Shown here: positions 1,426-29,000 of the stretch, one piece after another
Position numbering within the stretch: the first letter of the stretch is position 1
Layout: every line of letters begins with the position of its first letter
Assembly: GCA_036676985.1 (NCBI GenBank)
Contig: JAKFBU010000025.1
Location: 1 to 57,973, forward strand
Origin: Candidatus Sericytochromatia bacterium
GTDB lineage: Bacteria > Cyanobacteriota > Sericytochromatia > S15B-MN24 > UBA4093
Length of the DNA stretch: 57,973 nucleotides
Direction: 5' to 3'
Position numbers and translations under genes: made by a program
Notes under the pieces: model-generated
What the model saw: the letters and a program-made list of their open reading frames with translations, nothing else
What the model was told of the DNA's origin: nothing
Database searches by the model: none

Positions 1426-2541
1426 CTACTTGGGCTTGTGGGCTTCCGCGAGCATCTTGAGGTAGGCGTAGGCGACCATGTCCTTGTTGTTGACGATCGC
1501 GCCCACCATGCCGTCGATGGGACCGAGGCTCACGGACTGGTTCGGGATGGATTTGGCGAGGTCCGCCGCCCCGAACTTGCCGATCTTGCCCACCTCGGCG
1601 GTCGTGAGCGGGATGCCCTTCCAGCCTGGGGGGACGTTGGTGACGATGGTCTTGCCCCAGCGCACCGAACGGGCGGCCTCCTCGGCCGTGAGCACGTGCT
1701 CGACGACCGCGTCGTACTGGGTCTTGGCGGGACTCACCTTGCCGAGCACCTTGCCGAGCTTGCTCTCGGGGGCGACGCCCACGATGGCGTCCACCACGCC
1801 CGCGATCTTGGTGCTCTTGCCGTCGGCCGCCATCGAGTATACCTGGCCGTTGTTGAGGAAGCGACGCTCCAGGCCCTCCTTGGTGAGCGCCCAGTGTCCG
1901 CCCTTGCCGCCCATGGAGAGGAAGCCGCGCTCGCTTCCCTTCAAGACGGCGGAGTCCGCGATCTTCATGGCGTTGGCGGCGGTGGTGTAGTGCAGGATCT
2001 TCTCGCCGGCCTTGACCTCGGCCCCGAGCTTGGTGGCGTTGCGCACGGCCTTGAGGAGCTTGGCGCCGCCCGTCACCTTGAAGACCTTGGCGCCGACACC
2101 GCCTATCTTGCCGACGGGAATGAAGTTGATGGCCACCTCGCCAAGCGCCCACGCGGCCGCCTTGGCGCGCGTCTTGGTGTCCTTGGTGCCATCCAGGGCC
2201 GTGCTCGTGTTCTTGGCGACCGACGTGACGCCGGAGAAGTCCATGACCAGGCCGAAGGCCTTGCCCACAAAGCCCGTCATGCCGCCCTCCTTCGAGCGGT
2301 CTTCCCAGTACTGGCGGGCGTCCTGGACGGGGTTGTTGACGAAGGTGTCCCAGAGGCGCTTGGCCTCACCGGGCTCCTCGATCTTCTGCTTGGCGTCCGA
2401 GGAGATGGCGACGGCGTCCTGGCGGGGGCGCGGCTGCTGTTGAGCCTGTTGCTGGGGCGCCTGTTCGAGCGGGCCGGTCGGTCGTGCCTGGGGCTTGCCC
2501 AGGGGCGTCGTCGGCGTTCCTCGTTCGACCTTGCCACCCAT
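1426..2541 (-). CDS. polymorphic-toxin-like protein, putative HYD1-type ADP-ribosyltransferase C-terminal domain
   Basis: GGAGGTG RBS before ATG 2541; P/Q-rich disordered N-terminus; pre-toxin-like AINFIPVGKIGG; ILHYTT..I..S..LKGS and GQVYS motifs. Confidence 0.55.
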   Translation of the reverse strand: MGGKVERGTPTTPLGKPQARPTGPLEQAPQQQAQQQPRPRQDAVAISSDAKQKIEEPGEAKRLWDTFVNNPVQDARQYWEDRSKEGGMTGFVGKAFGLVMDFSGVTSVAKNTSTALDGTKDTKTRAKAAAWALGEVAINFIPVGKIGGVGAKVFKVTGGAKLLKAVRNATKLGAEVKAGEKILHYTTAANAMKIADSAVLKGSERGFLSMGGKGGHWALTKEGLERRFLNNGQVYSMAADGKSTKIAGVVDAIVGVAPESKLGKVLGKVSPAKTQYDAVVEHVLTAEEAARSVRWGKTIVTNVPPGWKGIPLTTAEVGKIGKFGAADLAKSIPNQSVSLGPIDGMVGAIVNNKDMVAYAYLKMLAEAHKPK

Positions 2542-2608
2542 CGCCTTCACCTCCACGCGTCGCGACGGCCGGTGCCGCTTTCCATGACATTCCCTGTCCG
2601 GCCGCGTT

Positions 2609-2632
2609 GCTAACGACCGAGCGGTCGTTAGC
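2609..2632. promoter_or_regulatory. perfect 11-bp inverted repeat (operator or 5'UTR hairpin) in a divergent intergenic region
   Basis: GCTAACGACCG-AG-CGGTCGTTAGC. Confidence 0.4.
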
Positions 2633-2673
2633 CGATAGCAGGCATTCGCCAGCGTGTCCCAACTCCTTTGGGC

Positions 2674-2699
2674 ACATCGGCCAAACGCTCCGAGGTTGA
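2674..2699 (-). promoter_or_regulatory. possible sigma28 (FliA)-like promoter for the toxin-like gene
   Basis: minus strand TCAA-N14-GCCGATGT compared with consensus TAAA-N15-GCCGATAA. Confidence 0.3.
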
Positions 2700-2728
2700 C
2701 GCGGCTAAACTGCCCGCAGGAGGGACTT

Positions 2729-3292
2729 ATGAGGCAACCGACACGTTGGTGGCACGGCCGTTTCTGGATGGCGGGAGGGCTCGTCTTTCTGGTGGCTTGC
2801 ACGGCGTCCCCTTCAGGGGGCGGCGGCGGAGCCTCTCCTTCGCCCAGCCCATCTCCTAACCGTCCGGCTGCCACCCCCGCGGTACCGGGGCCGGCTCCGA
2901 TGATCAGCGATCGCCCCGGCCTACCGGGCACCGGTCGTTTGATCCAGCCCGCCGTCACGCCGGCCCCCGGTGGCGGGCCGACGAGCTACCCGGAGGGGAC
3001 GGTCTTCCTGACGGGGAACATCGAGGTCACGATCGGGCCGGGGGCGACCTTCACGCCGAGCCACGTCTACCTGCGACCCGGGGCCTCGACCACGTTCGTC
3101 AACCGGGACACGGTGGCGCATACCGTGGCGGGCTTCGGCGGCGCCACGGACTCCTCGGGCGCCATCGCCCCGGGCGGGCGCTACACCAAGGGGTGGTCCC
3201 ATCCCGGCACCTGGACCTTCCACGATCCGGCCGTTTCGGGTTCGGGGGTGTTTACGGTGACGGACGTTCCGGAGTCAGGGACGGGGCACTGA
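2729..3292 (+). CDS. lipoprotein with Pro-rich linker and cupredoxin-like C-terminal domain
   Basis: lipobox LVAC; FTPSHVYLRPGASTTFVNRDTVAHTV...SGAIAPG..Y...PGTW.FH plastocyanin-like pattern. Confidence 0.7.
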   Translation: MRQPTRWWHGRFWMAGGLVFLVACTASPSGGGGGASPSPSPSPNRPAATPAVPGPAPMISDRPGLPGTGRLIQPAVTPAPGGGPTSYPEGTVFLTGNIEVTIGPGATFTPSHVYLRPGASTTFVNRDTVAHTVAGFGGATDSSGAIAPGGRYTKGWSHPGTWTFHDPAVSGSGVFTVTDVPESGTGH

Positions 3293-3375
3293 GTTACGGG
3301 GGAATGCTCAGGTCTCGTCACCCACGACAGGGCGCGGGCCACCGTCGCCAACCCTGTCGTACGGAGGGCGTTGCT

Positions 3376-3404
3376 CTGGACCCCCGCTTTCGCGAGGGTG
3401 ACGG
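3376..3404 (-). repeat. REP/dRS3-like palindromic repeat, family A
   Basis: reverse complement CCGTCACCCTCGCGAAAGCGGGGGTCCAG; five copies in the window. Confidence 0.8.
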
Positions 3405-3455
3405 AAGCGCCGACTTGGCGCAAAAGGCTTGCCTTTTATGTCTGAATAAGCGCTC

Positions 3456-8305: not shown

Positions 8306-8785
8306 ATGACGTGGGATCAGCTCAAGGAGCTCATTCGCCAGAACCGGGTGTTCGACGGGCTGTCGGACGCCGATCTCGCGGCGCTGGGCGGCATCGCCAC
8401 CCCCCAGCGGGTCGCAGTGGGCGAGACCATCCTGCACGTCGGCGACAAGGCGGACGCCTTCTACCTCCTGAGCGAGGGCGGCGTCGAGGTCTGGGCGCCC
8501 AAGGACGGCGATCGCCAGGTGCTCGCCAACCTCGGGCCGGGCCAGGTCTTCGGGGAGATGGCCTACATGTTTCCGGACGCCCCGCGCATCGCGAACGTCA
8601 CGCCGACCATGCCCAGCGAGGTCTACCGGGTCGGCTACGCGGACTTCAAGTCCCTCGAGACCTCGGCGCCCTCTGCCTACCGCGCCATCGTGACCAACCT
8701 GACCAAGCTCGCCGACGCCCGCAGCTGGACGAGCCCCGTCGACCTGATCTTCCAGCACTACATCACGGCGTTCTCTCACCGCTAA
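8306..8785 (+). CDS. cyclic nucleotide-binding domain protein
   Basis: GD.AD.FY....G.VEV...LGPGQVFGEMA....PRIANV; no HTH. Confidence 0.88.
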   Translation: MTWDQLKELIRQNRVFDGLSDADLAALGGIATPQRVAVGETILHVGDKADAFYLLSEGGVEVWAPKDGDRQVLANLGPGQVFGEMAYMFPDAPRIANVTPTMPSEVYRVGYADFKSLETSAPSAYRAIVTNLTKLADARSWTSPVDLIFQHYITAFSHR

Positions 8786-11096
8786 ACTGCGCCGCGCGCG
8801 CCCGCTCGCGGTCCACGACGGCCTCGAGCGCCTCCAGGCATGCGCCGGCGAGCTCCGGATCCGCTCCCTCCATCGCTTCCAGGAGCGAGTGGGCCGTGCG
8901 CGGCTCGGCGATGGCTCCGAGGAGCCGTGCGGCGCGCACCCGCACCCGCTTGTCCCCGTCGCGCAAGAGGGCCGCGAGCCGCATCAGCGTGCCGGGCGTC
9001 ACCAGCGCCCGGACGGTGTCCGCGGCCTGGGCGAACACCTTGGGATCTGGATCCCGCAGCGCCCCGAGCACGTCGTCGAAGGCCTCGACGGCGCGTAGGG
9101 CGGCGATCGCCTCCAGGGCCTCCCGGCGCACGGCCGGATCGGCATCCGAGAGGGCCGACCGGCATGCCTCCAGGGCCTTGAACGATCCGATCCGTCCGAG
9201 CTGCCGCAGGGCCTCGGCCTTGAGGACCGGGGAGTGGGACGCGGTCATGAGGGCGTCCGCCGCCTCGGAGGCACCCAGCTCGCCGAGGGCCTCCACGGCC
9301 CCCAGCCGTACGACCAGCTCGGCGTCGCGCGAGGCCTCCGCGAGGGGCACGAGCGCCTCCTTGTCCCCGAGCATGCCGAGGGCATCGACGGCCCGGCGGC
9401 GCACCAGCTTGTCGTGGTCCTCGAGGGCCGCGACCAGGGCCGGAATGGCCTCGTGGTGGCCGAGGCGTCCCAGGGCTTCGGCTGCGTGCCGCCGGTCCTC
9501 GGGCGATCCTTCGGCCAGGAGGCGCAACATGGGCGTGACGGCGCGCGGGATGTCCCCCAGGCTCTCGGTGGCCGCGCGGCGCACCTCCACGTGCGGGTCG
9601 TCGAGGGCCGCCATCAGGGGACGCACGGCCTCCACCTTCCCGATGATGCCGAGGGCGTCGGCCGCGCTCACGCGGACCTGCCAGCTCTCGTCCCCGAGGG
9701 CCCTGATGAGGGGGCCGAGGGCCGCCGGATCGGCGTAGAGGCCGAGGGCCTTGGCTGCCACCAGGCGCAGGTAGTCCTCGGGATGGGTGAGGGCCTCGAG
9801 CATGAGGTCGAAGGCCGCCGCGTCCCGCCGGTAGGCGAGGCTCTCCACGGCGCGCTTCAGGGCGCGGGCCGTCCGCTGGCGCACCCAGGAGGAGCTGTCC
9901 TTGAGGCCGCCCATGAGGGCGCGCAGGGCGTTGGGGGTGCCGAGCGCCCCCAGCCCGTCCACCGCACAGCGCCGTACGTAGCGGTGCGGATCCTGGCTGG
10001 CGACCAGCAAGGGATCCTCGCTCGCGAGCTCCCCGCGCTCGCCGAGCGCGCGGGCCGCGAGGCCCCGCACGTACGGGTCGGAGAGCCGCAGGGCCCCGAG
10101 CAGGGCCTCGCCGGCGTTCGGCATGAGGCGGAGGCTCTCGATGGCCGCGAGGCGCACCCGAGCGTCCGGATCGCCGAGGGCGTCCACCAGGCCGGGAATC
10201 GAACGCTCGGCCTCGAGCAGGCCCAGGGCCTCGGCCGCCCGGCGGCGGACCTGGGCGGAGGGATCCTTGAGCGCCGACAAGAGCGAGTCGACGGCCTCCG
10301 GGATGCGGCCGAGGGCGTAGGCGGCCTTGCGCACCACCTCTTCGTTCTCGTCGCGCAGGGCCGCCAGGAGGGCGTCGATGGCGCGGTGGTCCCCGAGGCT
10401 CGCCAAGGCACTCGCCGCCGCCTCGCGGATGGCCGGGTCCGGGGCCCGCAGCTCGTCCAGGAGGGCGTCGGTGGCACGGCGATCGCCCAGGGCCACCAGC
10501 GCCTCGATGGCCTCGTGGCGCACGCCCAGCTGCTCGGTGCGCATGGCGAAGAGCAACGGATCGAGTGCCCGCCGGTCTCCCAGCCGCCCGAGAGCTGTGA
10601 CGGCCGCGCGGCGCGCGCTCTGGCTCGCGGGATCCATGAGCATGCGCGACAGGGGCCCGAGGGCTCGGATGTCGCCCAGGCGGCCCAGGAGGTGGGCGGC
10701 CGCGCGCCGGAGGGTCTCGTCGCGGTGGCTCAGCGCCAGGAGGATGGGCTCGGCGAGGCCCAGGGAGGTGCCCAGGATCTCCTGGATCTCGCCCGGCAGC
10801 TCGTGGATGTCGATGCCGCCCTTGGCCAACAGGTCGAAGGTGCCTTCCTTTCCCAGGGCACGCAGCGCCTCGGCCGCGGCGCGCTTGACGTCCGTGTTGG
10901 GGTCCTTGAGCAGTTCCATGAGGGGCTCGACGGCGGCCGGGTAGCCGAGCGACCCCAGGTTCTGGGCGGCCCAGGCGCGCACCCGGGCGCTCGGATCCTT
11001 GAGGGCCACCAGGAAGATGTCCAGGACGGCGAAGGCGAACTCGTCGATGCGGCTGCCGTCCTTGGAGGAGGACTCGGGGGCGGCGAAGTCGGTCAT
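8763..11096 (-). CDS. HEAT/PBS-lyase repeat protein
   Basis: more than 20 repeats of L.D.D..VR..AA.ALG.LG. Confidence 0.92.
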   Translation of the reverse strand: MTDFAAPESSSKDGSRIDEFAFAVLDIFLVALKDPSARVRAWAAQNLGSLGYPAAVEPLMELLKDPNTDVKRAAAEALRALGKEGTFDLLAKGGIDIHELPGEIQEILGTSLGLAEPILLALSHRDETLRRAAAHLLGRLGDIRALGPLSRMLMDPASQSARRAAVTALGRLGDRRALDPLLFAMRTEQLGVRHEAIEALVALGDRRATDALLDELRAPDPAIREAAASALASLGDHRAIDALLAALRDENEEVVRKAAYALGRIPEAVDSLLSALKDPSAQVRRRAAEALGLLEAERSIPGLVDALGDPDARVRLAAIESLRLMPNAGEALLGALRLSDPYVRGLAARALGERGELASEDPLLVASQDPHRYVRRCAVDGLGALGTPNALRALMGGLKDSSSWVRQRTARALKRAVESLAYRRDAAAFDLMLEALTHPEDYLRLVAAKALGLYADPAALGPLIRALGDESWQVRVSAADALGIIGKVEAVRPLMAALDDPHVEVRRAATESLGDIPRAVTPMLRLLAEGSPEDRRHAAEALGRLGHHEAIPALVAALEDHDKLVRRRAVDALGMLGDKEALVPLAEASRDAELVVRLGAVEALGELGASEAADALMTASHSPVLKAEALRQLGRIGSFKALEACRSALSDADPAVRREALEAIAALRAVEAFDDVLGALRDPDPKVFAQAADTVRALVTPGTLMRLAALLRDGDKRVRVRAARLLGAIAEPRTAHSLLEAMEGADPELAGACLEALEAVVDRERARAAQFSGERTP

Positions 11097-21056: not shown

Positions 21057-22538
21057 GTGGCTTATCCCCGCGGTAGCGGCATCCTGTTCCACCTTACCTC
21101 GTTGCCCGGCCCCCATGGCATCGGCGACCTGGGTCGGGAGGCCCATCGGTTCGCCGACTTCCTGGCTATCGGCGGTCAGAAATACTGGCAGCTCTTGCCC
21201 CTGGGGCACACGGGCTATGGCGACTCGCCGTACGCGGCCTTCTCGGCCTTTGCCGGCAATCCGCTGCTCATCAGCCTCGAGACTTTCGTCGAGGAGGGCT
21301 GGTTCCCGGCCGAGGAGCTGCACGATCACCCGCGGTTCCCGGGCCACGAGGTCGATTACGGGGCCGTCATCCCCTGGAAGATGGGCATGCTCCGCAAGGC
21401 GTTCGCCCACTTCGAGGCCCGCCATCCCGAGTGGCCCGCCGACATGCTGCAGTTCTGCTACATGTCGGCCGACTGGCTCGAGGACTATGCCTTGTTCATG
21501 GCCCTCAAGGACCATCACCAGGGCGAGCCATGGGACAAGTGGGAGCCGGGCGCCCGTCACCGCGATCCGAGGGCGCTCGCGCGTTACGCGCACGAGCTCG
21601 CGGCGGATGTTCGCTTCTACCGCTTCCTCCAGTTCCAGTTCTTCCGGCAGTACACGGCCCTCAAGCAGCACGTGAACCAGAACGGCATCGCCGTGGTCGG
21701 CGACATGCCCATCTTCGTCGCCTACGACAGCGCCGACACCTGGGCCCACCAGGGGCTCTTCCTGCTGAACCAGGGTCGACCGGTGGTCGTGGCGGGCGTG
21801 CCGCCCGACTACTTCAGCAAGACCGGCCAGCTCTGGGGTAACCCCCTGTACAACTGGGAAGCCATGGCGCACCGGGGCTTCGACTGGTGGGTCGCGCGCA
21901 TGCGCATGGCCCTCGCCATGTTCGACATCGTGCGGATCGACCACTTCCGCGGCTTCGCAGCGTGCTGGGCCATCCCCTACGGCGACCAGGACGCGACCCG
22001 CGGCTGGTGGATGAAGGCTCCCGGCCACCAGCTCTTCGAGACGCTTCAGGCGCACCTGGGCCGGCTGCCCATCATGGCCGAGGACCTGGGCGTCATCACG
22101 CCAGACGTGGAGCGCCTGCGCGATCGCTTCGGCTTCCCGGGCATGAAGGTGCTGCAGTTCGCCTTCGGCTCGGACCGCGCCAACCCGTATTTGCCCGAGA
22201 ACCACACGGTGAACAGCGTGGTCTACACTGGCACGCACGACAACGACACGACCTTGGGCTGGTACAGCCAGGCCACCCGCAAGGAGCGCACGACTTTGCG
22301 GCGCTACACGGGCACCGACCACAGCCGGGTCGCGTTGGACTTGATGCGCGTGGCCATGGCCTCGCCGGCCTCGATGGCCATCACGCCCTTGCAGGACCTC
22401 CTGGAGCTCGGGACCGAGGCCCGGATGAACACGCCGGGCGTGAAGGGCGGGAACTGGAAGTGGCGAGTCGCGCGTGAGCACGTGAACGAGGGATTGGCCT
22501 CGGGCCTGCGGGCGTTCACGCGGGAGTTCCAGCGGTAG
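21057..22538 (+). CDS. malQ: 4-alpha-glucanotransferase (GH77)
   Basis: GDMPIFVAYDSAD, GQLWGNPLY, RIDHFRGF, AEDLG, YTGTHDNDT. Confidence 0.96.
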   Translation: MAYPRGSGILFHLTSLPGPHGIGDLGREAHRFADFLAIGGQKYWQLLPLGHTGYGDSPYAAFSAFAGNPLLISLETFVEEGWFPAEELHDHPRFPGHEVDYGAVIPWKMGMLRKAFAHFEARHPEWPADMLQFCYMSADWLEDYALFMALKDHHQGEPWDKWEPGARHRDPRALARYAHELAADVRFYRFLQFQFFRQYTALKQHVNQNGIAVVGDMPIFVAYDSADTWAHQGLFLLNQGRPVVVAGVPPDYFSKTGQLWGNPLYNWEAMAHRGFDWWVARMRMALAMFDIVRIDHFRGFAACWAIPYGDQDATRGWWMKAPGHQLFETLQAHLGRLPIMAEDLGVITPDVERLRDRFGFPGMKVLQFAFGSDRANPYLPENHTVNSVVYTGTHDNDTTLGWYSQATRKERTTLRRYTGTDHSRVALDLMRVAMASPASMAITPLQDLLELGTEARMNTPGVKGGNWKWRVAREHVNEGLASGLRAFTREFQR

Positions 22539-22583
22539 GTCGTCGTGTTCACGCCGGAGACCCGGCTGCCAGGATGGCCGGCT

Positions 22584-22612
22584 CTGGACCCCCGCTTTCG
22601 CGGGGGTGACGG
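22584..22612 (-). repeat. family A palindromic repeat
   Basis: CTGGACCCCCGCTTTCGCGGGGGTGACGG. Confidence 0.8.
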
Positions 22613-22653
22613 ATACCTAACTGCCGCAAGCAAATTCAATCATCGGTAGGCAA

Positions 22654-22693
22654 AAACGGTAGCGGGGGCCCATTCGGGCCCCCGCTACCGTTT
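22654..22693 (-). terminator. intrinsic terminator after the BMC gene (possibly bidirectional)
   Basis: AAACGGTAGCGGGGGCCC-ATTC-GGGCCCCCGCTACCGTTT with a T-tract on the minus strand. Confidence 0.8.
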
Positions 22694-22704
22694 CAATGGC
22701 GCGA

Positions 22705-23331
22705 TTAGCGGCCGGCGTTGACCTTGCCGGAAAGGGATTCGATGGCGCGGACGGCGGCCTTGGCGCCCTCCTCGATGTTCGCCTCGTCGCCCGCCAGGTA
22801 GACGCGGCCGAAGGCACCGAAGGCGCGCACCTCGAGCACGTTGACGTCCGCCGCCTTCTCGGCCTCGTTGGCCGCCAAGAGCGCGTAGCCCGCCGGATGG
22901 ACCTCCAGCACGAACAGCGTCTCGCCCTTCTTGATCATCTCACCGTGCCGCATGCGGTTGATGAGCATGGTCTGGTGGGCATCGGTGCCGGTGATGGTCG
23001 TCGCCGAGACGATCTTGGGCTTGATGCGGTCGTCTTCCGTCAGGCCCATGCGGTCGAGGATGGCCTCGCCCGCCGCCCGGACCTCGTACTGCTCGTCATG
23101 GTGCGCCTCGAGCACGCCGAAGTCGCGCTCGACGATGAGCATGCCGGGCTTGACCTTGGTGGCCTTGAGCGCCGCGTCGGTGATCAGGTTGATCTCGATG
23201 CCCGGGTTGATCTCGACGAACACGGACGCCTGGCCCTCGACGGGGAGGAAGCCCTGGGACACCGTGCCCATGAAGGCCGCCACCTGGGGCTGAAGGGTAT
23301 CGAGGTAGACGAAGGTACGGAGATCGGCCAT
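22705..23331 (-). CDS. tandem-domain bacterial microcompartment shell protein (BMC-T, CcmP/CsoS1D-like)
   Basis: LRTFVYLDTLQPQ.AAF.G...GFLP, VERDFGVLE.H, AANEAEKAA, GAFGRVYLAG. Confidence 0.88.
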   Translation of the reverse strand: MADLRTFVYLDTLQPQVAAFMGTVSQGFLPVEGQASVFVEINPGIEINLITDAALKATKVKPGMLIVERDFGVLEAHHDEQYEVRAAGEAILDRMGLTEDDRIKPKIVSATTITGTDAHQTMLINRMRHGEMIKKGETLFVLEVHPAGYALLAANEAEKAADVNVLEVRAFGAFGRVYLAGDEANIEEGAKAAVRAIESLSGKVNAGR

Positions 23332-23346
23332 CGGGTCCTCCTAAAT

Positions 23347-23697
23347 TCAGGAAAGCAGCGCGTCGAGTTGCTGGGTATCCATCCCGACCACCAACCGATC
23401 GCCGATGCGGAAGGAGGGACGGCGCACGAGGTAGGGTTCTTCGGCCATCAAACGGATCATCTCATCGTTCGAGAGGGACTTGCCCTCGAGACCCATGGCC
23501 TTGTAACGAGGGCTCTTGGTCGAGAAGAGGTCGGCGGCCGGGCGATCGCCCAGCACCTGCTTCAGCTCCTGGAGCGTCAGAGGCTGCTTGAAAAGGTCCC
23601 GCTCCTGGATGTCCACGCCCTTTTGCGAAAGGTACCCCTTCGCCTTGGTGCAGGTACTTCAGCCCTTCTTGGTAAAGAGCGTGACGGCTTGAGCCAT
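23347..23697 (-). CDS. ArsC/Spx-family thioredoxin-fold selenoprotein (UxxC), 116 aa
   Basis: GGAGG RBS; ATG GCT CAA...AAG GGC TGA AGT ACC TGC gives MAQAVTLFTKKGUSTCTKAK in frame with the ArsC body (EPYLVRRP). Confidence 0.85.
23625..23643 (-). promoter_or_regulatory. bacterial SECIS-like hairpin
   Basis: GCGAAGGG-GUA-CCUUUCGC starting 15 nt after the UGA; G-initiated apical loop. Confidence 0.65.
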
Positions 23698-23777
23698 GAA
23701 ATCCTCCGAAGAGTCCGTAAGAAGCGGAACGTGGGTCTATGATACCGCACGGAGCGAGCGGATGATAGGGGATCGGC

Positions 23778-24845
23778 CTAGCGGGACCCCGAAATCAGCG
23801 CCGCGATCTGACGGGCTGCCTGTCCCTCGCCGAACTCGCCCAGCCGGCGCGCGCTCGTGGGCCGCTCGGAGAGCGCGCGCGCGAGGGCCGCAGGGTCCGC
23901 ACCGACGAGCACGTTCCAGCCGCCCGCGAGCGTCTCGTCCCACTCGGTCTCGTCGCGCAGGGTCCGGCAGGGCACGCCCAGGAAATAGGCCTCCTTCTGG
24001 ACGCCGCCCGAGTCCGTGAGGACGGCGGCCGCGTTGGCCTCCAGCATGAGCATGTCCAGGTAGCCGACGGGCGGGACGATGCGCAGGTTCGGGTGCGCGA
24101 GGACCGAGTCGAGCCGCTGCTCCTCGAGCCGCTTGCGGGTCCGCGGGTGCAGGGGCAGCACCACGGGCTTGTCGAGCGTCGGGAAGGCCCCGAAGATGGC
24201 CGCGAGGCGCGCGGGGTCGTCCGTGTTCTCCGCCCGGTGCACGGTGGCCAGGTAGTATCCGCCCGGCGCGAGGCCGAGCTCCGCGAGCATGCCCACCCGC
24301 TCCTGGGCGCGGGGCCGGAAGTGCAGGGTGGCATCGTACATGACGTCGCCCACCCGGTGGACGCCTGAGGTGATGCCCTCGGCGGCGAGGTGGCGGACCG
24401 CCGTCTCGGTGGGCGCGAAGAGCAGCGTCGCGGCGTGGTCCGTGAGGACCCGGTTCACCTCTTCCGGCATCCGGCGGTTGAAGCTGCGCAGCCCCGCCTC
24501 CACGTGCGCGATGGGGATGTGGAGCTTGGTGGCGGCCAGCGCCCCGGCCAACGTCGAGTTGGTGTCGCCGTAGACGAGCACCCAGTCGGGCTGTTCCGCC
24601 ATGAGGACGCGCTCGATCTCGGTGAGCATGGCGCCCGTCATGGCTCCGTGCAGGCCGCCGCCGATGCCCAGGTGGTATTCGGGCTTGGGGATGCCCAGCT
24701 CCTCGAAGAAGACGTCCGACATGTTGGCGTCGAAGTGCTGGCCGGTGTGGACCAGCACTTCCTGCGCGACCTGGCGTAGCTCGTGGCTGACCGGAGCCGC
24801 CTTGATGAACTGGGGGCGGGCTCCGACGACCGTGACGACCTTCAT
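23778..24845 (-). CDS. wecB: non-hydrolysing UDP-sugar 2-epimerase (WecB/WbpI-like)
   Basis: GARPQFIK, HTGQH, GDTNST, HVEAGLRS, TDSGGVQKEA. Confidence 0.93.
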   Translation of the reverse strand: MKVVTVVGARPQFIKAAPVSHELRQVAQEVLVHTGQHFDANMSDVFFEELGIPKPEYHLGIGGGLHGAMTGAMLTEIERVLMAEQPDWVLVYGDTNSTLAGALAATKLHIPIAHVEAGLRSFNRRMPEEVNRVLTDHAATLLFAPTETAVRHLAAEGITSGVHRVGDVMYDATLHFRPRAQERVGMLAELGLAPGGYYLATVHRAENTDDPARLAAIFGAFPTLDKPVVLPLHPRTRKRLEEQRLDSVLAHPNLRIVPPVGYLDMLMLEANAAAVLTDSGGVQKEAYFLGVPCRTLRDETEWDETLAGGWNVLVGADPAALARALSERPTSARRLGEFGEGQAARQIAALISGSR

Positions 24846-25967
24846 CTAGACGCTCGCCACCCCGGCGACCGCCTTGGCGAGGGCGGAGACGACCTCGCGC
24901 TGCTGCGCCTCGGTGAGCTCGGGGAAGATGGGCAGGGACAGGACCTCGGCGGCGGCTCGATCCGAGACCGGGAAGTCGCCCTTCTTGTGGCCCATGTAGG
25001 CGTGGACCTCCTGCTGGTCCAGGGGAATGGGGTAGTAGACCATCGTCTGGACGCCGAGCTCGGCCAGGGCCTTCTGGACGCGATCGCGCTCCTTCACCCG
25101 GATGGTGTACTGGTGGTAGACGGGCACGGTGCCCTCCAGCTCGTCCGGCGTGACGACGCCCGGGATGCGGGCCTCGGCGATGAGGGCGTTGTAGCGCTTG
25201 GCGACCTGGCGGCGGGCCTCGTTCCACTGGTCCAGGTGCGGCAGCTTGACCCTGAGGACCGCGGCCTGGAGCTCGTCGAGCCGCGAGTTCACGCCGAGCT
25301 CCGTGTGGTGGTACTTGATGGCGCCGCCGTGGGCGCGCAGCATGCGGGCGCGGTCGGCGATCGCCGGGTCGTTGGAGACGAGCGCCCCGCCGTCGCCGTA
25401 GCAGCCGAGATTCTTGGACGGGAAGAAGCTGAAGCAGCCGACGTGGCCGATGGTGCCCGTCTTCTTACCCCGGTAGGTCGAGCCGATGGACTGGGCGCAG
25501 TCCTCGATGACGGACAGCCCGTGCTTTTCAGCGATCTCCGTGATCGCGGCCATGTCCACGGGCTGGCCGTACAGGTGGACGGGCATGATCGCCTTGGTCT
25601 TGGGCGTGATGGCCGCCTCGACGAGCGCGGGGTCCATGTTGTAGGTGACGGGATCGATGTCCACGAACACGGGCGTCGCGCCCACGATGCCGATGGCCTC
25701 GGTGGTCGCCACGAAGGTGAAGGGCACGGTGATGACCTCGTCGCCCGCCCCGATCTTGAGGGCCCGCAGAGCCAGGTGCAGGGCGTCGGTGCCCGAGTTC
25801 ATGCCGACGGCCTGGGCCACGTCGAGGTAGCTCGCGAGCTCCTTCTCGAACGCCTTCACGTTCGGACCGTTGATGTACTGGCCGCTGCGGACCGCCACGA
25901 GGATGGCCTCGTCCATTTGGGCCTGGAGGGACTCGTACTGGGGCTTGAGGTCGAGAATGGGGATCAT
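24846..25967 (-). CDS. DegT/DnrJ family aminotransferase (WbpE-like)
   Basis: NSGTDAL, PVHLYGQ, EDCAQ, FSFFPSKNLG, NSRLDELQAA. Confidence 0.93.
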   Translation of the reverse strand: MIPILDLKPQYESLQAQMDEAILVAVRSGQYINGPNVKAFEKELASYLDVAQAVGMNSGTDALHLALRALKIGAGDEVITVPFTFVATTEAIGIVGATPVFVDIDPVTYNMDPALVEAAITPKTKAIMPVHLYGQPVDMAAITEIAEKHGLSVIEDCAQSIGSTYRGKKTGTIGHVGCFSFFPSKNLGCYGDGGALVSNDPAIADRARMLRAHGGAIKYHHTELGVNSRLDELQAAVLRVKLPHLDQWNEARRQVAKRYNALIAEARIPGVVTPDELEGTVPVYHQYTIRVKERDRVQKALAELGVQTMVYYPIPLDQQEVHAYMGHKKGDFPVSDRAAAEVLSLPIFPELTEAQQREVVSALAKAVAGVASV

Positions 25968-25969
25968 GG

Positions 25970-26560
25970 TTACTTCCTCGTCACCGACTGGTCGCCGGTC
26001 TTCTCGTAGTGCTTGCCGCATTCGGAACAGGTGGCCGCGTTGCCCGAGAACGCGAGCTTGACGCCGCACTCGCAGGCCCAGCCCTTGATGCGGGCGGGGT
26101 TGCCGTAGACCATGGCATAGGGGGGCACGTCCTTGGTCACCACCGAGCCCGCGCCCACGAAGGCGTACTCGCCGAGCGTGTGGCCACAGACGATGGTGGC
26201 GTTGGCGCCGATGGTGGCGCCCTTCTTGACCAGGGTCTTGGCATAGTCCTTCTCGGGGTCGTTGCGGCGCACGTGCGAGCGGGGAGTCGTCACGTTGGTG
26301 AAGACCATGGAGGGCCCGCAGAACACGTCGTCCTCCAGGATCACGCCGGTGTAGACCGAGACGTTGTTCTGGATCTTGACGTTGTGGCCGATGGTCACGC
26401 CCGGGCTGATGACGACGTTCTGGCCGATGTTGCAGCGCTCGCCGATGACGCAGTCCTTCATGACGTGGCTGAAGTGCCAGATCTTGGAGCCCGCGCCGAT
26501 GGTGCAGGGCTCGTCGACGTACGAGCTCTCGTGGACGAAGTAGGGCTGGTTCGTGCTCAT
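25970..26560 (-). CDS. hexapeptide N-acetyltransferase (WbpD-like)
   Basis: [26 protein letters not shown]-terminal Zn knuckle. Confidence 0.92.
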
Positions 26561-26567
26561 GGGGGTC

Positions 26568-27560
26568 CTATCCAACGATGGCGGGGGATTGCAGCTTGTG
26601 TTGGGCGGCCTCGAGCACGCGCAGCACGCGCGCGCCGCTCCAGCCGTCGCTCTTGGGGCGGCGGCGCGAGGCGACGCACGACAGGAAGTGCGCGAGCTCG
26701 CGGGCCATGGGCTCGCCAGGCGGGACGTCGATGACGCGCTCGTCGCCCCGGCGCAGCAGCCAGGAGTCCTCGACGCGATCGAACCCGCGATCGTAGACCA
26801 AGAGCTTGTGGTCGGGCCGCGAGTCCTCGAAGACGGCCATGGCCCTGGTGCCGATCACCGTCAGCTGGTGCAACTTGACGGGCTCGAGCCAGCTCACGTG
26901 GATGTGCGCCGTGACGCCGTCCGCGAAGCCCAGGTCCATGTGGACCGTGTCGGGGATGCCCGGCTGGAGCACGGTGGTGCCAAAGGCCTCCACCCGTTTG
27001 GGCTCATGGGGGGCCACAAGGCCGAGCACCAGGCTCACGTCGTGGGGCGCGAAGCTCCACATGACGTTCTCCTCGTGGCGCAGCTTGCCCAGCGACAGGC
27101 GCGAGCTGCGCACGTGCTTGATGGTGCCGAGCTCCCCGTCGCGTGCGAGCTTGAGCAGGCACTCGTAGGCCGGATGGTACTCGAGGATGTGCCCCACCAT
27201 GAGGACGCGCTCCAGGCGGTCGGCCTCGGCGGCGAGTTCCTCGGCCTCGGCGGCCGTGAGCGCCAGCGGCTTCTCCACGAAGACGTCCTTGCCGGCGCGC
27301 ATGGCTTCCAGGGCGAGCCGGTGGTGGGTGCTCGCGGGCGTGGCGATGACGACTGCGTCGATTGACGGGTCCGCGAAGACCTCGCCCGCGTCGAGGGTGA
27401 CGGGGACGTCGGGGTGGCTCTGCGAGAGCTTGGCGAGCGTCACGGGGTCGCGATCGCAGATCATGGCGAGCGCCCCCAGGCGCTCGGTGTTGCGGACGAG
27501 GTTGGGGCCCCAGTAGCCGCCTCCGATGCAGGCGACGCGAGGCGGGTTAGAGGAGGACAA
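26568..27560 (-). CDS. Gfo/Idh/MocA oxidoreductase (WbpB-like)
   Basis: [21 protein letters not shown]. Confidence 0.9.
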
Positions 27561-28875
27561 TCTTCTCTCTCCCTTCCGTCAGGTGCTTGGTGGCGTTGCG
27601 GGTGTCGACCACGACCGCGGCGTCCGCGACCACCCGCGCGTAGTCCACCGTCGAGTGGTTGGTCATGATGACGACGCAGTCCGCCCAGGCGAGGCCCTCG
27701 TCGAGGGGCACGCTCTCGTAGGTCGTGCCGTGGTGCCGGAAGCTCGGCACGTACGGGTCGTGGTAGGCGAGCTCGACCTCGTCCTGCTTCAAGATGTCGA
27801 GGAGCTTGAGGGTCGGGCTCTCGCGCCAGTCGTTGATGTCCTTCTTGTAGGCCGCGCCGAGAAGCAGGATCCGGCTGCCGAACAGGCTCTTGCGACGACG
27901 GCCCAGGGCGCGGAGGATCTTCTCGCGCACGTGGTAGGGCATCAGCACGTTGATCTCACCCGCCAGCTCGATGAAGCGGGTGTGGAAGTCGTACTCGCGG
28001 GCCTTCCATGTCAGGTAGAAGGGGTCGATGGGGATGCAGTGTCCGCCCACGCCCGGGCCCGGGTCGAAGCGCATGATGCCGAAGGGCTTGGTGTTGGCGG
28101 CCTCCACGACCTCCCAGATGCTGATGCCCATCTTGTCGCACAAGAGCGCGAGCTCGTTGACCAGGGCGATGTTCACCGCGCGGAAGGTGTTCTCGAAGAC
28201 CTTGGTCATCTCGGCGACCTTGGGGCTCGACACGGCCACCACGTGCAGGATGGTCTGCTGGTAGAAGGTCTTCGCGACCTCCAGGCAGCTCGGCGTCACG
28301 CCCCCCACGACCTTGTTGGTGTTCTTGGTGGTGTAGCGGGCGTTGCCCGGGTCCACGCGCTCGGGGCTGAAGGCCAGGAAGAAGTCCGTGCCGACCGTCA
28401 GGCCGCTCTTTTCGAGGAGGGGCAACAGGACCTCCTCGGTGGTGCCGGGATAGGTCGTGCTCTCGAGGGAGACGAGCTGGCCGGGGCGCAGCTGCGGGGC
28501 GAGCTGCTCGGCGACGTTGACGATGTACTGGATGTCCGGGTCGCGCGTCTCGGTCAGGGGGGTCGGCACGCAGATGACGACCACGTCGCAGGAGGCGAGC
28601 TCGGTGAAGTCCGTGGTCGCGCGCAGGAGGCCCTTTTCGACCAGCTCCTTGAGCTCGTCCGGCTGGACGTCGTCGATGTAGTTCTCGCCGCGGTTGACCT
28701 TGGCAACGCGCTCGGCGCTGCGATCGAAGCCCACCACCGAGAACCCGACCTTGCCCTTCTCGACGGCGAGCGGCAAGCCGACGTAGCCGATGCCGATGAC
28801 GCCAACCTTGGCGGAGCGGGTGGTGATGGCGTCGAGGAGGCGGGGCTTGGCCGCGAGGCCGGTCGTTTCCATCAT
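27547..28875 (-). CDS. UDP-N-acetylglucosamine 6-dehydrogenase (WbpA-like)
   Basis: GIGYVGLP, CVPTP, ESTTYPGTT, SPERVDPG, GGHCIPIDP. Confidence 0.93.
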   Translation of the reverse strand: MMETTGLAAKPRLLDAITTRSAKVGVIGIGYVGLPLAVEKGKVGFSVVGFDRSAERVAKVNRGENYIDDVQPDELKELVEKGLLRATTDFTELASCDVVVICVPTPLTETRDPDIQYIVNVAEQLAPQLRPGQLVSLESTTYPGTTEEVLLPLLEKSGLTVGTDFFLAFSPERVDPGNARYTTKNTNKVVGGVTPSCLEVAKTFYQQTILHVVAVSSPKVAEMTKVFENTFRAVNIALVNELALLCDKMGISIWEVVEAANTKPFGIMRFDPGPGVGGHCIPIDPFYLTWKAREYDFHTRFIELAGEINVLMPYHVREKILRALGRRRKSLFGSRILLLGAAYKKDINDWRESPTLKLLDILKQDEVELAYHDPYVPSFRHHGTTYESVPLDEGLAWADCVVIMTNHSTVDYARVVADAAVVVDTRNATKHLTEGREKIVLL

Positions 28876-29000
28876 GGGAGGTTCCTGCACGGGACGGGGA
28901 TGCTGCATGCGCCGGTGCGCATGCCCCACATTCTACACCAGCCATGGGCTTCTTGCCGTCCGTGGTAGGATCGGGGAGCATCCTACCTCTGAGGTCCCGC

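Follow-up and report, generated by a model that had tools for sequence, protein, structure and literature searches.

The DNA analysed here, called the window throughout, is a 57,973-nucleotide contig of Candidatus Sericytochromatia bacterium (JAKFBU010000025.1, assembly GCA_036676985.1), and our subject is a pair of adjacent genes on its reverse strand. The upstream member, gene A (23347..23697; 116 codons followed by a TGA stop at 23349-23347), encodes a protein of the ArsC/Spx superfamily of thioredoxin folds. Its start is read from the sequence as the ATG at 23697, and a ribosome-binding site, GGAGGA (23702..23707, reverse strand), lies 4 nt 5' of this ATG and is conserved in the congeneric genome G001. 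The downstream member, gene B (22705..23331; ATG at 23331, TAA at 22707-22705), encodes a 208-residue shell protein of bacterial microcompartments (BMCs) with tandem permuted BMC domains, that is, of the BMC-T(dp) type. A 15-nt spacer (23332..23346) separates the two genes and carries the sequence AGGAGG at 23337-23342, 5 nt before the gene B ATG; the spacing is the same in G001, with one base different. Downstream of gene B, on the same strand, lies an element resembling an intrinsic terminator (22650..22694), in which a 19-bp hairpin with a GAAU loop (22653-22694) runs into UUUUU. The hairpin folds at -45 kcal/mol (z = -7.73), none of 200 shuffled sequences folds equally well, and G001 has a hairpin at the corresponding position. 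A pattern scanner called no terminator here because the T-run lies partly inside the stem, and an Rfam search of the hairpin at a permissive threshold gave nothing beyond chance microRNA matches.

Gene A adds a new selenocysteine (Sec) member to the ArsC/Spx fold, and gene B is a satellite BMC-T(dp) gene; both are of kinds that are already known. We explain their pairing as a genus-level accident of gene order between two genes of known kinds, and give this explanation a probability of about 0.7. The initial annotation of the locus had described a UxxC selenoprotein of the ArsC/Spx type and a CcmP/CsoS1D-type shell protein, together with the 15-nt spacing, the AGGAGG ribosome-binding site and the strong terminator, in a non-photosynthetic relative of the cyanobacteria. 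Each of these descriptions agrees with what we found; the link that it proposed between the selenoprotein and a microcompartment is weighed further below.

The redox gene and its in-frame TGA codon

With the in-frame TGA read as Cys, the gene A product matches the Pfam family ArsC (PF03960), scoring 49.9 bits where the cut-off is 24, which places it in the superfamily, and Glutaredoxin as the second Pfam match with 42.5 bits. The top NCBIfam match is the Spx/MgsR model TIGR01617 (69.3 bits, below the cut-off of 75.05), and the best solved relatives are Spx chains (7f75, 6ghb and 1z3e; 59 bits). In the translation the redox motif is U13-S-T-C16, in the context G-U-S-T-C, and its U13 and C16 align with the C-T-S-C switch of Spx from Bacillus subtilis and other Firmicutes, U13 falling on Spx C10. 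Spx is a redox-switched regulator that binds RNA polymerase; its Gly52 contacts the C-terminal domain of the alpha subunit, and its C-terminal tail also has a role. The gene A product differs from Spx in missing the TIGR01617 cut-off, in carrying a Pro at the position that aligns to Gly52, and in its length of 116 residues as against 131-132, so that it lacks a C-terminal tail of the Spx type. Nothing was found to suggest that it acts as a regulator.

Selenoproteins of this fold with a UxxC motif have precedent, and gene A shares with them the fold family and the U-x-x-C position; a listing in the Global Ocean Sampling selenoproteome already contains an entry 'Arsenate reductase 2, cd03032, UxxC' (PMC2398784). 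Gene A nevertheless differs from the ArsC (seleno)proteins described by the NF041106 model, on which it scores 39 bits against a cut-off of 85, and is only 31-38% identical to a metagenome group with the motif PT-U-TKC; it therefore represents a separate subfamily. Its nearest relatives are Cys forms with 54-63% identity. The more distant metagenome group is itself a well-populated Sec/Cys pair, with PT-U-TKC (once PT-U-SKC) at loci L188, L190 and L194-L199 and PT-C-TKC at L186, L189, L191 and L192.

The in-frame TGA is codon 13 of gene A (23659..23661, reverse strand), which we read as Sec. It aligns with the Cys of CSTC in the full-length homologues P0007 and P0008 and in L182-L184 (57-63% identity). 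The 90%-identical gene A of G001 keeps it as its single TGA, and a contig assembled from a groundwater metagenome of another study (run X5) spans 23480-23692 with no differences. Between gene A and the G001 copy we counted 7 synonymous and 3 non-synonymous changes over the first 28 codons of the alignment; the 12 codons 5' of the TGA are in frame in G001, with mostly synonymous changes, behind the conserved GGAGGA and ATG. Since synonymous changes prevail, this 28-codon stretch, with the part that precedes the TGA, is translated. The genome also encodes the machinery for Sec, comprising tRNA-Sec, selA, selB and selD, and all of the protein models score above their cut-offs. Its selD gene (G000:C26:280471-281394, reverse strand) contains one in-frame TGA, and SelD itself is probably a selenoprotein.

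Just 3' of the TGA lies a stem-loop (23601..23663, reverse strand) that resembles a selenocysteine insertion sequence (SECIS) element. Its core is an 8-bp hairpin with the loop GUA (23625-23643) that begins 16 nt after the UGA. The folding energy of the stem-loop is -22 kcal/mol (z = -1.49), and 18 of 200 shuffled sequences do equally well. A 5-bp core remains in G001, where one G-U pair has become A-U and two pairs are broken. We regard the stem-loop as suggestive only.

That the hairpin is statistically undistinctive would fit a different reading of the codon, in which the TGA is a true stop and gene A is either a pseudogene or the source of an 89-residue product from the GTG at 23616, without the redox motif. 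An 89-residue open reading frame is also what automatic callers report, as in P0002. Shortened predictions are the usual fate of selenoproteins and are to be expected around a TGA, and automatic gene calling shortens the close homologues P0002-P0006 in the same way, to 89-96 residues. Two parts of the fold, its first strand and its active-site helix, would be missing from the 89-residue product, and the position of the TGA matches precisely that of the catalytic Cys in the homologues, in a genome with complete Sec machinery. The pairs of PT-U-TKC and PT-C-TKC proteins among metagenome members of the ArsC family, and the mostly synonymous changes in frame before the TGA in G001 behind the conserved GGAGGA and ATG, speak against a stop as well. 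We consider a true stop very unlikely and conclude that codon 13 is, with high probability, a Sec codon at which Sec is inserted. Gene A then reads as a clean and recent conversion of Cys to Sec within the ArsC/Spx fold, made possible by the Sec machinery that this lineage carries. For annotation, the practical point is that automatic callers shorten this selenoprotein to 89-96 residues.

A selA gene scoring above the cut-off was found in 23 of 61 genomes, with a marked difference between families (7/8 in f3, 7/8 in f4, 4/6 in f7 and 0/13 in f6), and in none of the 14 'same phylum' genomes from outside the class. Sec use thus seems common in the class and was not found in the oxygenic cyanobacteria sampled.

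The shell gene and the main microcompartment locus

The Pfam BMC model (PF00936) recognises gene B with 29.8 bits (cut-off 24.5) and does so through the C-terminal domain alone (residues 141-201). Alignment to solved BMC-T(dp) chains covers residues 3-207 and hence both domains over their full length, with 262 bits for 5v76_A, 244 for CcmP (5lsr/4ht5), 241 for HO-5816 (5v74) and 198 for CsoS1D (3f56). The tripeptide V67-E68-R69 is invariant in all 21 aligned orthologues. By alignment offset, E68 and R69 correspond to positions 69 and 70 of 5lsr, and we take this Glu-Arg pair to be the gate residues of the pore. The gene B product contains no Cys, and its orthologues contain none or one.

Proteins of the BMC-T(dp) type carry two tandem BMC domains in about 205-215 residues, and their trimers characteristically stack face to face. 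The features of gene B liken it to satellite BMC-T(dp) proteins such as 5v76 and HO-5816 of Haliangium ochraceum, CcmP and CsoS1D, with which it shares its length, the full-length alignment, the invariant Glu-Arg pair and a gene position away from the main locus. The chain 5v76, deposited under the molecule name 'Microcompartments protein', is presumably the satellite-encoded BMC-T3 of H. ochraceum. Shell genes of this kind, set apart from the main locus, are described for several BMC types in passages of a published account, where they are proposed to tune permeability (PMC8217296).

Gene B gives the one BMC-domain match on the contig, and no BMC-type enzymes were found among the 19 neighbouring open reading frames scanned between 8.8 and 37 kb. 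The initial annotation had called it a lone shell gene and had seen neither cargo nor further shell genes in its vicinity, which is accurate for the window and does not extend to the genome. A main BMC locus lies on another contig, C4, so gene B is 'lone' only locally. The shell genes there are a BMC-H, a tandem BMC-T, a second BMC-T(dp) of 212 residues and three BMC-P (EutN/CcmL) genes; because the genome thus encodes BMC-H and BMC-P as well, the host can build a shell. They are accompanied by genes for a DeoC-type aldolase (PF01791; TIGR00126, 299.8 bits), RpiB (PF02502), an acylating-type aldehyde dehydrogenase, a class II aldolase and a Nuo51-like FeS protein. In the passages describing locus types, DeoC and RpiB together are the signature of sugar-phosphate-utilising (SPU) metabolosomes (PMC8217296). 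The C4 locus shares with these DeoC, RpiB, the aldehyde dehydrogenase, BMC-H, BMC-T and the BMC-P triplet, and differs in adding the class II aldolase, a signature like that of the Planctomycetes and Verrucomicrobia microcompartment (PVM), and the Nuo51-like FeS protein. From its gene content we assign it to the SPU type. The C4 DeoC (L009:16606-17778, reverse strand) and class II aldolase (L009:7200-8687, reverse strand) have N-terminal extensions of about 170 and about 260 residues, respectively, which are possible encapsulation regions.

On the equivalog model NF053796 of the beta-carboxysome protein CcmP, gene B scores 281.3 bits, below the cut-off of 340, and the C4 BMC-T(dp) paralogue 286.5. 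Gene B also differs from CcmP in its setting, for the host genome, rated 100% complete, has no matches to RuBisCO_large and none to Photo_RC, from which we conclude that the host is a non-photosynthetic relative of the cyanobacteria. In the literature searched, Sericytochromatia were not found mentioned together with microcompartments.

Gene B and the C4 paralogue are 58% identical. We placed both in a quick maximum-likelihood tree (LG+G4, SH-like approximate likelihood ratio test (SH-aLRT), midpoint root) of 132 rows, consisting of the gene B product and 131 rows drawn from all 130 loci, with matches of fewer than 170 aligned residues filtered out. BMC-T(dp) proteins fall into two sides in this tree, and SH-aLRT supports each of them at 99%. 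The first contains gene B, the G001 copy, all 24 best matches of the relatives within the class and 17 rows from other phyla, and those of the latter with titles shown are Myxococcota or Deltaproteobacteria. On the second are the C4 copy, 19 second copies of relatives and the majority of the rows from other phyla, joined by the three rows of cyanobacterial CcmP. Because two well-supported sides separate the lineages of gene B and the C4 copy, gene B is placed as an old second BMC-T(dp) paralogue, found across the class (apparently Sericytochromatia) and kept by most of its genomes, and not as an orthologue of CcmP. A carboxysome remnant was considered for gene B and ruled out by the CcmP score below the cut-off, the missing RuBisCO and the position on the tree side without CcmP; the gene should be annotated as the satellite gene of an SPU-type metabolosome. 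More broadly, genomes of this non-photosynthetic sister class of the cyanobacteria commonly combine Sec machinery with sugar-phosphate metabolosomes that have two old BMC-T(dp) paralogues, which is of relevance to the origin of CcmP.

Within the class the distribution of BMC-T(dp) is uneven. A match is present in 42 of 61 genomes and, besides the genome of the window, in one of nine of its own family. All sampled genomes of families f4, f6 and f7 have one, whereas in the window's family it is confined to the genus, and five genomes of the same family have no BMC-domain match of any kind. On this pattern, the sister genera would have lost BMC-T(dp), or else this genus has regained it. One further copy appears decayed (G046:C6:86664-87242, forward strand); at 40% identity it contains 12 stops (4 TGA, 3 TAG and 5 TAA) and looks like a pseudogene.

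Conservation and meaning of the pairing

If genes A and B worked together, their adjacency might be expected to recur, and the initial annotation had put forward a neighbourhood search for BMC-T beside ArsC/Spx genes. We looked for ArsC-like neighbours around BMC-T(dp) loci in all six frames with TGA read through, covering all 27 sampled genomes of the order. Within +/-1.5 kb, such a gene adjoins one of the relatives' 29 loci, that of the congener G001. In other phyla, none of the 80 loci with the best BMC-T(dp) homologues has one, up to +/-4 kb. In the converse direction, a metagenome scan with the single gene A protein returned no relative, and a scan with an ArsC-family alignment returned 22 loci, none of which has a BMC-T within 3 kb. 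The pairing is thus not conserved beyond the genus, an outcome of the kind that the initial annotation had named as refuting its proposal, and on the genomes sampled genes A and B would have been neighbours only since the genus arose. In the literature searched, the papers that mention microcompartments, selenocysteine and a shell protein together include none about such a pairing, as far as titles and the opening lines of abstracts tell and with supplementary tables outside the search.

Orthologues of gene B elsewhere in the class keep other company. In family f6, a gene for 3-hydroxy-3-methylglutaryl-CoA (HMG-CoA) reductase (PF00368) lies directly 3' of the orthologous shell gene, with stop and start overlapping, at 8 of 8 loci scanned (L096, L099, L100, L101, L103, L108, L109 and L110, at about 2130-3425 in each). 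At five f6 loci beyond those scanned (L097, L098 and L111-L113), an adjoining open reading frame of the same size is present. This f6 pairing is much better conserved than that with ArsC. In f4 (g7), PQQ_2/BamB-like beta-propeller genes stand beside the orthologous shell gene at two of three scanned loci, and at three f7 loci the neighbour is a CHASE2 cyclase. The ArsC homologues of the relatives are likewise found in different surroundings, as Cys forms beside SBP_bac_5, metallo-beta-lactamase (MBL)-fold or CMD genes. The closest Cys homologue among them (54%, genome G008) adjoins MBL-fold and CMD genes, and G008 is one of the five same-family genomes with no BMC-domain match.

Several observations nonetheless weigh against an accident of gene order. 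Genes A and B form a tight co-directional pair, and the 15-nt spacing and single terminator make their co-expression likely, as far as gene layout can tell. Both genomes of the genus keep the pair with identical spacing, and contigs from three runs of other studies (X8 record 19, X9 record 26 and X10 record 2) bridge the gene A-gene B junction. Retention within the genus and the bridging contigs therefore leave some room for a genus-specific functional coupling. The neighbour counts given above also leave out the homologues P0009, P0010 and P0013, which have 67-76% identity and may carry Sec; taken with P0003-P0006, these possibly Sec-bearing homologues span 67-91% identity. Finally, in two f4 genera a gene of the low-molecular-weight (LMW) phosphotyrosine phosphatase/ArsC type, with the motif C-x5-R, lies convergent to the orthologous BMC-T (L093:638-1051, forward strand; L094:2100-2516, reverse strand). 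Small Cys-based neighbours of this type in two f4 genomes could hint at a recurring theme. We rejected the idea that arsenate-reductase-like genes accompany the shell gene as a general pattern, the LMW phosphatase (LMWPc) homologue being present at just two of the 130 loci searched, L093 and L094.

The initial annotation had gone further and suggested that the selenoprotein may be cargo or a regulator of a microcompartment, and three forms of such a link can be envisaged. The protein could be packaged as cargo, it could act as a redox partner docking at the gated BMC-T(dp) pore, or it could regulate shell expression in the manner of Spx. The tight pair with one terminator, its conservation in G001 and in contigs of three other runs, and the LMW phosphatase/ArsC-type genes of L093 and L094 can be cited in favour. 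So can the Nuo51/FeS protein of the C4 locus, since a main locus that encodes it implies redox chemistry in the C4-encoded BMC. Each of the three forms, however, meets a specific difficulty. For a cargo role, the fold alignment to Spx occupies residues 4-111 (up to 115) of 116 and leaves neither an N- nor a C-terminal extension, and so the gene A product has no room for an encapsulation peptide. As for a redox partner, the gene B product has no Cys for exchange and thus is not a thiol-disulfide substrate. A regulator of the Spx kind is at odds with the sub-cut-off Spx/MgsR score and the Pro at the Gly52 position. To these must be added the presence of the nearest Cys homologue in a BMC-free genome, the restriction of LMWPc to two of 130 loci, and the rarity of the pairing, which is missing at 28 of the relatives' 29 loci, at all 80 from other phyla and at all 22 from metagenomes. 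We therefore judge a cargo, docking or regulatory role improbable, as we do genuine functional coupling of the two genes in general.

A more particular version would confine the link to this genus. Here the selenol/thiol protein would have been recruited to the SPU metabolosome and co-expressed with BMC-T(dp), using or controlling its large pore, a scenario to which we give even less credence. It could, for example, deliver reducing equivalents to a lumenal FeS or flavoprotein, or handle arsenate as a phosphate analogue, with the LMW phosphatase/ArsC-type neighbours of f4 as a parallel solution. Should a functional link, improbable as it is, prove real, gene A would encode the first microcompartment accessory to depend on selenium.

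We therefore favour an accident of gene order, in which neither gene needs the other. Gene A encodes a small thioredoxin-fold selenol/thiol oxidoreductase in which Sec has very probably replaced the first Cys of an N-terminal CxxC. Gene B encodes a second, satellite-encoded BMC-T(dp) trimer with a predicted gated pore, presumably serving the SPU-type metabolosome of C4. Its position outside the main locus may let a minor shell component that tunes permeability be controlled separately, in line with what has been proposed for satellite shell genes.

Transcription unit and neighbouring genes

Upstream of gene A and on the same strand lies wecB (23778..24845), which encodes a non-hydrolysing UDP-N-acetylglucosamine 2-epimerase (PF02350, 354 bits; TIGR00236, 305.9 bits). 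It is the last of a reverse-strand run of four sugar-nucleotide genes (23778-28929) for a nucleotide-sugar dehydrogenase, a GFO/IDH/MocA oxidoreductase, a DegT aminotransferase and the WecB epimerase, a set that we take to resemble a UDP-2,3-diacetamido-sugar acid pathway. Downstream, and convergent with gene B, a malQ-like gene for a 4-alpha-glucanotransferase occupies 21057..22538 on the forward strand (PF02446, 597 bits). G001 has the same arrangement of wecB upstream and malQ convergent downstream.

Genes A and B are probably co-transcribed, possibly together with the upstream sugar-nucleotide genes. In the latter case there would be no separate two-gene operon, and both genes would form the tail of a longer transcript that originates in the UDP-sugar run. 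The four co-directional genes upstream are separated by short gaps, and the 80-nt gap before gene A contains no distinctive or terminator-like structure (z = +0.26). A scan of 22400-24000, covering sigma-70 consensus sites only, found no sigma-70-like promoter, and that limit itself tempers the argument. Moreover, G001 shows good conservation of the 80-nt gap, which contains TATCAT-like boxes as a possible promoter. We hold the longer transcript to be less likely than not, though by no means far-fetched. It is compatible with our preferred explanation of the pairing, and on this view genes A and B would be adjacent through insertion into an operon for the cell envelope.

Elsewhere in the window, 8766-11096 on the reverse strand encodes a 777-residue protein of HEAT repeats, including repeats of the PBS-lyase type, in a genome without photosystem genes.

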